Source: Candidatus Margulisiibacteriota bacterium
Lineage (GTDB): Bacteria; Margulisbacteria; WOR-1; JAKLHX01
Direction of reading: 5' to 3'
Length of the DNA stretch: 64,000 nucleotides
Assembly (NCBI GenBank): GCA_041650595.1
Contig: JBAZKW010000003.1
Coordinates: 44,843-108,842, forward strand
Shown: piece by piece, positions 28,419-28,785 of the stretch
Position numbering within the stretch: the stretch's first letter is position 1
How the letters are laid out: each line of letters opens with the position of its first letter
Notes under the pieces: model-generated
What the model saw: only the letters and a program-made list of their open reading frames with translations
What the model was told of the DNA's origin: nothing
Databases searched by the model: none
Position numbers and translations under genes: made by a program

Positions 28419-28492
28419 TAGCGGGGGTGGGATTTGAACCCACGACCTCCGGGTTATGAGCCCGACGAGCTACCAGGCTGCTCTACCCCGCG
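28419..28492 (-). tRNA. Initiator tRNA-fMet (CAU)
   Basis: The reverse complement reads CGCGGGGTAGAGCAGCCTGGTAGCTCGTCGGGCTCATAACCCGGAGGTCGTGGGTTCAAATCCCACCCCCGCTA. It has a C1xU72 mismatch and three G-C pairs at the base of the anticodon stem, and is very close to E. coli tRNA-fMet. Confidence 0.9.
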
Positions 28493-28727
28493 ATACTTTA
28501 AGCATTATATCTCTTTTTTCTCTGAATGTCCCGCTCTTGAGATGTTTTTCGATTTGCCGCGCCTCTTTTCTGTCCTTACATTCGTATTTAAAGACCACTT
28601 CCCAGTTAGCACCGTGCTTTGTCGTTTTATGTTGACCGGAATTATGTTCCTTCAATCGTCTGTCCAGATCGTTTGTGATACCGGTATAGGTTTTACCGTT
28701 TTGATCTTGAAGAATATATACGTACAT
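28470..28727 (-). CDS. GIY-YIG nuclease family protein (YhbQ/COG2827-like)
   Basis: MYVYILQDQNGKTYTGITNDLDRRLKEHNSG...ARQIEKHLK. The last ~8 codons read into the tRNA-fMet gene. Confidence 0.8.
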   Translation of the reverse strand: MYVYILQDQNGKTYTGITNDLDRRLKEHNSGQHKTTKHGANWEVVFKYECKDRKEARQIEKHLKSGTFREKRDIMLKVSRGRAAW

Positions 28728-28733
28728 CTCTGT

Positions 28734-28785
28734 CCCGACGAGCCCTGCCTGCCGGCAGGCAGGTACCAGGCTGCTCTACCCCGCG
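28734..28785 (-). pseudogene. Displaced 5' half of tRNA-fMet (nt 1-31) with palindrome A in the D-loop
   Basis: The minus strand reads CGCGGGGTAGAGCAGCCTGGTA[CCTGCCTGCCGGCAGGCAGG]GCTCGTCGGG. Outside the 20-nt insert (28744-28763) it is identical to the intact copy. Confidence 0.85.

Follow-up and report, generated by a model that had tools for sequence, protein, structure and literature searches.

A small GIY-YIG nuclease gene wedged between an intact tRNA gene and a palindrome-split fragment of the same tRNA: a probable family of minimal selfish cassettes in bacterial tRNA transcription units

Here we report the analysis of a locus in a 64,000-nucleotide (nt) stretch of the genome of a Candidatus Margulisiibacteriota bacterium (contig JBAZKW010000003.1; the whole stretch is called the window below), in which a gene for an 85-amino-acid (aa) GIY-YIG nuclease is wedged between an intact initiator tRNA gene (tRNA-fMet) and a truncated, displaced copy of the same tRNA. 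Running on the minus strand from 28785 to 28419, the whole unit measures ~0.37 kb and holds a single open reading frame (ORF), that of the nuclease, and no recombinase or integrase gene (Table 1). The displaced copy consists of tRNA nt 1-22 and 23-32, identical to the intact gene at 32 of 32 positions and separated from one another by a perfect 20-nt palindrome, and the intact gene lies 293 nt downstream of the start of the fragment. An earlier note on this DNA, made from the letters and a list of translated ORFs, had described the split copy and its palindrome correctly to the base; its placing of the start codon six nt after the copy, its assignment of the product to the GIY-YIG nucleases and its observation that the tail of the ORF enters the intact tRNA were likewise borne out. 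The last 23 nt of the ORF, including the TAG, fall inside the tRNA (28492-28470), and the ORF has no stop codon of its own. Only the downstream copy scores as a tRNA, as had been predicted. Two initiator features can be read from its sequence, a C1xU72 mismatch and, at the base of the anticodon stem, three G-C pairs. The upstream piece is not called as a tRNA, either with the palindrome or after its removal.

The window contains a second unit of the same design at tRNA-Leu(taa), with a 5-nt leader before a 95-aa GIY-YIG ORF and 9 nt between this ORF and the intact tRNA. The only DNA that the fMet and Leu units have in common is the palindrome: their proteins are ~31% identical (alignment A1) and their leaders are unrelated. 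Both inserts are bounded by direct repeats of partial tRNA sequence, of 32 nt in the fMet unit and 34 nt in the Leu unit. A third copy of the palindrome interrupts a tRNA-Gly-like 3' fragment that lies, without an ORF, between an intact tRNA-Gly(ccc) and a tRNA-Val; its acceptor sequence, CGCCCGC, differs from that of the adjacent tRNA-Gly(ccc), and it is probably the ORF-less relic of a unit of the mirrored, 3'-type form described below. Three copies in the window compare with 0.00 expected (100 shuffles), and the window as a whole contains five tRNA genes and five tRNA fragments.

Table 1. Features of the units in the window, and further loci with the same architecture (fragment numbering follows the tRNA; aa, amino acids)
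Location	Strand	Feature or target tRNA	Details
28764..28785	-	Displaced tRNA-fMet fragment nt 1-22 (acceptor 5' strand and D-arm to ...GGTA)	22/22 identical to intact tRNA 28471-28492
28744..28763	.	Perfect 20-nt palindrome CCTGCCTGCCGGCAGGCAGG	Exactly between tRNA-fMet nt 22 and 23, without target duplication
28734..28743	-	Displaced tRNA-fMet fragment nt 23-32 (D-stem 3' strand and anticodon-stem 5' strand)	10/10 identical to intact tRNA
28728..28733	-	Leader ACAGAG, 6 nt, from fragment to ATG	Palindrome end to ATG, 16 nt
28470..28727	-	85-aa GIY-YIG nuclease ORF	ATG at 28727; TAG stop in D-loop of intact tRNA; Pfam E=5.2e-17
28504..28532	-	Promoter-like GGGACA-17-TATAAT in 3' end of ORF	11 nt before +1 of intact tRNA; 10/12 consensus match, not evidence of function
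28419..28492	-	Intact initiator tRNA-Met (CAT)	ARAGORN; Rfam RF00005, 62.5 bits, E=5.7e-13
35605..35632	-	Promoter-like TGAACA-16-GATAAT	19 nt upstream of Leu fragment; 9/12 match, not evidence of function
35569..35585	-	Displaced tRNA-Leu(taa) fragment nt 1-17	17/17 identical to intact tRNA
35549..35568	.	Palindrome CCTGCCTGCCGGCAGGCAGG	Identical 20 nt, in D-loop of Leu fragment
35532..35548	-	Displaced tRNA-Leu fragment nt 18-34	Ends after U33 of anticodon loop; 17/17 identical
35239..35526	-	95-aa GIY-YIG ORF	Same clade as fMet ORF; palindrome end to ATG, 22 nt
35146..35229	-	Intact tRNA-Leu(taa)	ARAGORN
7745..7796	+	tRNA-Gly-like 3' fragment with third palindrome copy (7762-7781) in T-loop	..GGGTTCAAA, palindrome, TCCCATCGCCCGCT
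L236		tRNA-fMet	Metagenome; protein 66% identical to fMet-unit ORF; fragment nt 1-39; palindrome at same D-loop site
L005		tRNA-Gly(tcc)	Gammaproteobacteria; fragment nt 1-46; same palindrome in anticodon loop
L025		tRNA-Gln	Saccharibacteria; 5'-fragment unit, variant hairpin
L237		tRNA-Gln	5'-fragment unit, variant hairpin
L001		tRNA-Phe	Saccharibacteria; resident tRNA probably split around ORF and tRNA
L247, 2400-2960		tRNA-Leu	Margulisiibacteriota; resident tRNA split around ORF and tRNA
L248		Leu cluster	Saganbacteria; multiple fragments and palindromes
L260		tRNA-Arg(tcg)	Flavobacterium nitratireducens, complete chromosome CP121111.1; 5'-fragment unit, palindrome variant
L264		tRNA-Arg(acg)	Marinoscillum; nested units
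L240		tRNA-Arg(tcg)	Kaistella; mirror form: ORF, then 3' fragment with palindrome in anticodon loop
L249, 1410-2440		tRNA-Arg(acg)	Mirror form; three tandem units
L263		tRNA-Leu(taa)	Bacterium SCSIO 12741, complete chromosome CP073749.1; mirror form; different GC hairpin in T-loop
L124		tRNA-Asn	From palindrome search
L130		tRNA-Ser	From palindrome search
L153		tRNA-Lys	From palindrome search
L174		tRNA-Arg	From palindrome search
L232, 830-1465			IMG/VR contig 3300035537_000177; GIY-YIG unit, from palindrome search

The same architecture recurs at no fewer than 18 further, independently found loci, affecting more than 10 tRNA identities (fMet, Leu, Gly, Phe, Gln, Asn, Ser, Lys and Arg among them) in hosts that include Margulisiibacteriota, Saganbacteria, Saccharibacteria, Gammaproteobacteria and Bacteroidota. 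Five of the loci in Table 1 came from searches with the palindrome, as marked there, and the other L-numbered loci from protein similarity only. When members of the nuclease clade defined below were gathered without reference to the palindrome (n=16), a tRNA adjoined the gene in 15; the partial tRNA copy contained the palindrome or a close variant in 12 and a different GC-rich hairpin in two. The search for further units that the earlier note had called for was productive, although no empty-site allele was recovered. Carriage of the units by phages or plasmids was considered and rejected: relatives in IMG/VR amounted to two loci, tblastn against phages gave 16 weak matches, of which the one inspected (Rhizobium phage RHph_TM30) was not tRNA-linked, and a search of plasmids gave no match.

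A chimeric join or mis-assembled repeat could in principle produce such a duplication, the source being a metagenome-assembled genome, and an independent Logan contig of the same strain, reached via the neighbouring Nudix gene, stops inside the tRNA and spans neither an empty nor an occupied site. We nevertheless consider an artefact of assembly extremely improbable, since two complete isolate chromosomes (CP121111.1 and CP073749.1) carry the architecture; it is found too in independent assemblies from many laboratories, a second unit occupies the same window, and the ORFs are under purifying selection. Look-ups of the exact protein for both GIY-YIG ORFs of the window matched no indexed contig, and the best match among GTDB representatives is 51% identical.

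The 85-aa protein is covered by Pfam GIY-YIG (PF01541) over residues 1-66, and residues Y4, Y14, G16, R24, H28, N29 and E60 are invariant in alignments of 11 and 25 sequences. Its nearest relatives of known structure by sequence (phmmer) are the UPF0213 proteins BH0048 (1ZG2, E=9.4e-9) and EF2693 (1YWL, E=2e-5). An AlphaFold2 model (predicted local distance difference test 78.5) has the topology beta-beta-alpha-alpha-beta-alpha-alpha, and the top Foldseek matches to it were 1ZG2, 1YWL and the nuclease core of Slx1 (6SEH_C), the last with a template modelling score of 0.58 and a root-mean-square deviation of 2.8 Å over 68 columns. The protein is a single-domain enzyme of the UPF0213/YhbQ (COG2827)/Slx1 URI type, a family with more than 7,000 relatives at E<1e-10, and the catalytic domain fills it, leaving no separate DNA-binding domain. 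It belongs to no curated NCBIfam family, and PADLOC defence models gave only marginal matches (E>=9.5e-4) over short N-terminal stretches. All 13 tRNA-linked ORFs in a tree of 96 GIY-YIG ORFs fall into one clade, the tree being a rough neighbour-joining one without support values. Within the tRNA-Arg(tcg) lineage the ratio of nonsynonymous to synonymous substitution rates (dN/dS) is 0.14-0.19 at dS ~0.8, which indicates purifying selection on the nuclease.

Such selection, together with the consistent placement of the gene in tRNA transcription units, is also what might be expected of a host factor, for example a nuclease for the processing, repair or quality control of tRNA genes or pre-tRNAs, with the duplications as incidental by-products of recombination. 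We think this improbable: the ORFs are scattered sporadically over tRNA identities and phyla, some are broken by frameshift or truncation (L005, L012), units without any ORF, consisting of fragment, palindrome, short leader and tRNA, persist as relics (L075, L130, L153, L248, L264), copy number varies between one and three, and the two divergent copies described above stand at different tRNAs within a single 64-kb window.

The expression of the nuclease gene can be approached from the anatomy of the units, with promoter scans that rest on consensus matches only. In 5'-type units, those with a 5' fragment, the fragment retains the upstream flank of the original gene; the promoter-like site before the Leu fragment is a candidate for the original tRNA promoter, now driving the fragment and the ORF, and suggests that the nuclease gene is probably expressed from a captured tRNA promoter. 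The ORF of 3'-type units starts as little as 17 nt after the tRNA. A TAATAT flank proposed earlier as the promoter of the upstream fMet half was unsupported by the consensus scan, the best site in the unit lying instead inside the 3' end of the ORF, just before the intact tRNA, which would therefore not need to depend on read-through. Most 5'-type ORFs have no stop codon of their own and end in the D-loop of the tRNA (the fMet unit, L005, L124, L130, L153, L236 and L237). The earlier note proposed that nuclease gene and tRNA are co-transcribed and then separated by RNase P; since the stop codon of the fMet ORF lies 23 nt into the tRNA, a cut at +1 would yield a non-stop mRNA, which could limit expression of the nuclease.

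The palindrome proved to be no local oddity but a cross-phylum, sequence-invariant part of the unit. It was scanned for in metagenomes (at least 120 stretches) and in IMG/VR (35), and its context was analysed at 170 sites. At 16 of these the flanks read straight through the insertion point as a tRNA or tRNA fragment, as against none of 510 control junctions, an enrichment in tRNA-like sequence of more than 20-fold, and every insertion into tRNA sequence is exact and without target duplication. Outside tRNA sequence the palindrome is intergenic, where short flanking direct repeats are enriched (>=9 nt: 6.1% vs 0.7%; p=3e-5). An invariable position at hairpin tips was rejected, since flanking inverted repeats showed no more than a weak enrichment (>=7 nt: 8.5% vs 2.7%; Mann-Whitney p=0.18), as was a simple transposon with terminal inverted repeats and a target-site duplication, given that insertion is exact, leaves no such duplication and comes with no transposase. 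No ORF family other than this GIY-YIG clade begins repeatedly within 150 nt of the palindrome; among 80 GIY-YIG loci of GTDB the exact palindrome occurs at two of the five clade loci and at none of the 75 others. The ATG follows the right arm of the palindrome at a distance of 16-23 nt in 10 of 13 5'-type units, and this spacing holds whether the palindrome follows tRNA nt 8, 12, 17, 22 or 32. The end of the fragment thus tracks the palindrome and not a fixed position in the tRNA: the earlier suggestion that the duplication stops at the border of the anticodon stem stands for the fMet unit, which ends at nt 32, and fails elsewhere, since fragment ends range from nt 18 to nt 47.

The sequence of the palindrome is identical in Gammaproteobacteria, the candidate phyla radiation, Bacteroidota and Margulisiibacteriota. 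Genome-specific, multi-copy variants also exist, CCTGTCTGCCGACAGGCAGG in Flavobacteriia and a 21-mer in Marinoscillum, with three copies each at L264 and L249. Two viral contigs contain an otherwise complete tRNA-Met with the palindrome in its variable loop (L225, ~2239-2330; L202, ~8570-8650), and since ARAGORN calls this tRNA with and without the insert, the palindrome hairpin may be tolerated as a long variable arm.

These data bear on a reading in which the palindrome is an independent mini-element resembling a repetitive extragenic palindrome (REP) or a miniature inverted-repeat transposable element, moved by some other enzyme with a preference for tRNA loops. Its link with the cassette would then reflect survivorship, the palindrome being neutral in dead tRNA fragments and perhaps helpful by breaking a direct repeat that would otherwise delete the ORF; the cassette would still be selfish. 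Copies in intact viral tRNAs at a tolerated position, copies at hairpin tips and between short direct repeats, the multi-copy genome-specific variants and the presence of other 20-nt palindrome families in the window all fit an independent element. Against it, the palindrome matches at 20 of 20 positions between phyla, unlike the lineage-specific REPs; it lacks the GTAG/GTAC head, in contrast to the window's other 20-nt palindromes, and no head is common to the flanks of its three copies there; the distance to the ATG is near-constant at any tRNA position; and the sole recurrent neighbour is the GIY-YIG clade, with no REP-associated tyrosine transposase (RAYT) or other transposase seen nearby. 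We rate this reading as unlikely, though less so than the other rivals.

The invariance of the palindrome also stands out over time. The fMet-unit ORF and that of L236 are saturated at synonymous sites, yet the palindrome is identical at 20 of 20 positions and occupies the same site in both. Fragment and tRNA evolve in concert: in each of these two units the fragment is 100% identical to its own genome's tRNA, and the two tRNAs differ at four positions, which implies continual re-making or gene conversion of the fragments, or a recent arrival of the unit in each genome. Elsewhere the fragment differs from the adjacent tRNA (L153, L001), and L248 contains chimeric Leu(cag)/Leu(caa) pseudo-tRNAs. 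Units are also amplified in tandem: three identical repeats of leader, ORF and 3' fragment with a palindrome variant follow tRNA-Arg(acg) upstream of rpmB in L249, against a single unit in contigs of nine other samples (L250-L258).

A clean case of insertion is L247, where two fragments flank a block of leader, ORF, intact tRNA-Leu(cag) and 17 nt, and, with their hairpins removed, rejoin into a tRNA-Leu(cag) that ARAGORN calls. Here a resident gene has been split in the D-loop by an insert that brought a whole spare tRNA. A 19-nt hairpin element occurs twice in inverted orientation in the two halves of the split gene (CCCGCCTCCGGCGGG+TAAA and TTTA+CCCGCCGAAGGCGGG), 8 and 6 nt either side of the insert, and this is the sole locus with such an inverted pair. 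L247 and L001 favour an element that carries a whole tRNA, the far fragment being later deleted, and the window units would fit either this course or the supply of a replacement half.

The position of many fragment ends in or near the anticodon loop (nt 31-38), the classical site of tRNA introns, would fit the relic of a group I intron with a homing-endonuclease gene, its RNA having decayed and the tRNA having been repaired from an intron-less copy, a reading that develops the second option of the earlier note. One locus comes close to this arrangement: in L232 the anticodon loop of the intact downstream tRNA is interrupted by a group I intron (Rfam, 86 bits) with an HNH-like ORF, and the duplicated 5' fragment stops no more than 2 nt from the point where the intron is inserted. 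N-terminal matches of the nuclease to an NCBIfam group I intron endonuclease model are weak and below cut-off (E=3e-4). Rfam, which detects the L232 intron, gave no group I intron RNA (Intron_gpI) between 28100 and 29100 of the window, even at E<=10; fragment ends follow the palindrome and not the loop; 3'-type units, tandem arrays and whole spare tRNAs would be unexpected from intron loss; and the protein is of the UPF0213/Slx1 type, without the DNA-binding domain of intron-encoded GIY-YIG enzymes. An intron relic is accordingly poorly supported and, in our judgement, highly improbable.

We conclude that the fMet unit probably belongs to a widespread family of minimal selfish cassettes living in tRNA transcription units, with the palindrome probably serving as a cis-acting site. 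The alternative put forward in the earlier note, a selfish cassette that entered at the anticodon loop with its own replacement 5' half, agrees well with the range of tRNA identities, the single clade, the tandem amplification and the ORF-less relics, and needs revision to take in the mirrored 3' forms and the whole spare tRNA of L247 and probably of L001. The substrate of the nuclease, the mechanism of mobility, and transcription and processing are what we infer in the following scheme. The truncated copy would be the displaced remnant of the invaded gene, and tRNA function would be kept not by splicing but by a supplied or regenerated complete copy, whether a replacement half or a whole spare tRNA. 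The ORF would be expressed from the captured tRNA promoter in 5'-type units and by read-through in 3'-type units. Spread would proceed by break-stimulated homologous recombination in a homing-like manner, with the conserved tRNA sequence as portable homology arms. The palindrome might act as a binding, cleavage or operator site of the nuclease or as an insert that controls recombination, and is most simply taken as a cis-site in view of four features: an invariant sequence, a fixed distance from the ORF, one exclusive gene partner and an enzyme that resembles the structure-selective Slx1. The position of the palindrome would be coupled to the end of the fragment if the nuclease bound the palindrome and cut 7-20 bp from it. 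Other roles are conceivable, as an operator for autoregulation, as a spacer that makes the direct repeat shorter and loss of the ORF by deletion slower, or as an independent mini-element surviving in dead fragments.

Several points weigh against the cassette interpretation. In the available flanking sequence, more than 90% of the copies of the palindrome lack a GIY-YIG gene, and the palindrome may for this reason be an element in its own right. The protein lacks a DNA-binding domain, unlike proven homing endonucleases, and a regenerated tRNA would remain a target if the nuclease recognises tRNA sequence. The clade rests on the rough tree mentioned above, the loci found by palindrome search are biased toward having the palindrome, and the promoter-like site inside the fMet ORF means that co-transcription of nuclease and tRNA is not required. 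Look-ups for the window locus recovered no matched pair of empty and occupied sites, and mobility is therefore deduced from sporadic distribution, copy-number polymorphism and relics.

The cassette logic combines features of three known kinds of element. Phage T4 segB is a free-standing GIY-YIG homing endonuclease gene in a tRNA gene cluster (PMC2330249); like the cassettes it is a selfish GIY-YIG gene among or in tRNA genes with no host function, and its preferential inheritance by break-induced recombination, with co-conversion of flanking tRNA sequence, offers a parallel for the proposed spread. Enzymes of the SegB/I-TevI type, however, have 200-250 aa and a separate DNA-binding domain, whereas the cassette proteins have 80-95 aa and consist of the catalytic domain only; no duplicated tRNA half or palindrome has been described for seg genes, and the cassettes, which have both, are chromosomal in bacteria of many phyla and not phage-borne. 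Integrative elements that target tRNA genes (prophages and genomic islands with tyrosine integrases) likewise insert into tRNAs, preserve their function by carrying the displaced part and are bounded by partial tRNA direct repeats, but they measure kilobases, have an integrase gene and in most cases repeat the 3' part, while the cassettes measure ~0.3 kb, have no recombinase, mostly duplicate the 5' part including +1 and have a palindrome-disrupted repeat. Group I introns with homing endonuclease genes occur in the anticodon loops of bacterial tRNAs (PMC3984707) and similarly place a mobile nuclease gene inside a tRNA gene, often at the anticodon loop, with tRNA function kept; they restore that function by RNA splicing, in contrast to the duplication or replacement at the DNA level seen in the cassettes. 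With no DNA-binding domain, no recombinase and no intron RNA detected in the fMet unit, the cassettes lack a defining feature of each of the three kinds.

The nuclease and the palindrome have their own relatives. The fold, the catalytic residues and the single small domain are shared with UPF0213, YhbQ, YazA and Slx1 (1ZG2, 1YWL, 6SEH; PMC7017083). Slx1 cuts branched and hairpin DNA in a structure-selective manner (PMC7017083), which suggests the palindrome, as a hairpin or cruciform, as the substrate; it has a C-terminal zinc finger and needs Slx4, whereas the cassette protein is single-domain. REP/RAYT palindromes and the mobile GC clusters of yeast mitochondria resemble the palindrome in being short, GC-rich and multiplying, in intergenic hairpins and sometimes in genes, but REPs are lineage-specific sequences that owe their mobility to a Y1 transposase and have a GTAG-type head, whereas the cassette palindrome is a bare 20-mer identical across phyla. 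As far as we know, neither YhbQ nor YazA has been connected with mobile elements or with tRNAs. No published description of the architecture or of the palindrome string was found in the literature searched, mostly outside subscription journals, where a prior description is possible; the family is thus apparently undescribed, in agreement with the earlier note. More tentatively, and with somewhat less than even confidence, we suggest that these units form a new class of element: a nuclease gene of fewer than 100 codons that homes into tRNA genes and makes good the damage with a spare copy or half of its target instead of by splicing. Its mobility, immunity or both would depend on a universal 20-bp palindrome, recognised in hairpin or cruciform form by the Slx1-like nuclease, and this palindrome would in turn be a mini-element mobilised by the nuclease across phyla and seeding tRNA genes and hairpin loops.

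If confirmed, the cassettes would be the smallest autonomous selfish gene units yet seen in bacteria (~0.3 kb), and would follow a strategy undescribed for homing elements, that of invading an essential, universally conserved gene and bringing its replacement. They would provide a first biological role for part of the large, functionally unassigned UPF0213/YhbQ family, account for many partial tRNA genes that are a source of confusion in tRNA annotation, and bear on the splitting, duplication and isoacceptor exchange of tRNA genes. On a practical level, the palindrome and the 85-aa nuclease could form a compact structure- or sequence-specific DNA-cutting module, and cultured hosts (Flavobacterium nitratireducens, Kaistella) allow direct testing.

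A link to hairpin repeats may be a wider trait of small GIY-YIG genes. Genes of other clades (L024, L026, L031 and L038 in Bacteroidota; L017) lie within arrays of an unrelated GTCA..CTGAGC..GTCGAAG hairpin repeat, where the ORFs are flanked on both sides by direct repeats of 16-36 nt.

Further repeats and tRNA pieces are scattered through the window. A decayed 3' part of tRNA-Val(gac) (8088-8135, plus strand; nt ~27-76, 93-97% identical) follows tRNA-Cys, which thus sits between tRNA-Val and that tRNA's own 3' duplicate, and a lone 5' part of tRNA-Val(gac) (11826-11881, plus strand; nt 1-~54, 88% identical) is intergenic with no tRNA nearby. A palindrome-like sequence at 10795-10851 (plus strand), reading ..GCCTGCC, 36 nt and CCTGCCGGCAGGCAGG after a GGTTCG motif, may be a copy of the palindrome broken by another insertion. 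Other perfect GC-rich 20-nt palindromes lie at 22629-22648, 27519-27538 and 27548-27567, with imperfect ones at 27721-27751 and 27905-27935; they are of the forms AGGCGCCGCATGCGGCGCCT and GGGC[C/G]GGTCGCGACC[G/C]GCCC, the latter with compensatory changes, and each follows GTAC in a REP-like manner. Several are inside ORFs that remain open, those of a tRNA-binding-domain protein (27282-27740) and the Nudix hydrolase (27761-28309). The window also contains a 151-nt inverted repeat pair (32516-32666 and 61653-61803), 74% complementary and 29 kb apart, and a separate GC-rich repeat (GCCCTCACCCCCACCCCCTCTCCC...GGGAGAGGGG) at 24665-24702, 27236-27275 and 42604-42631.

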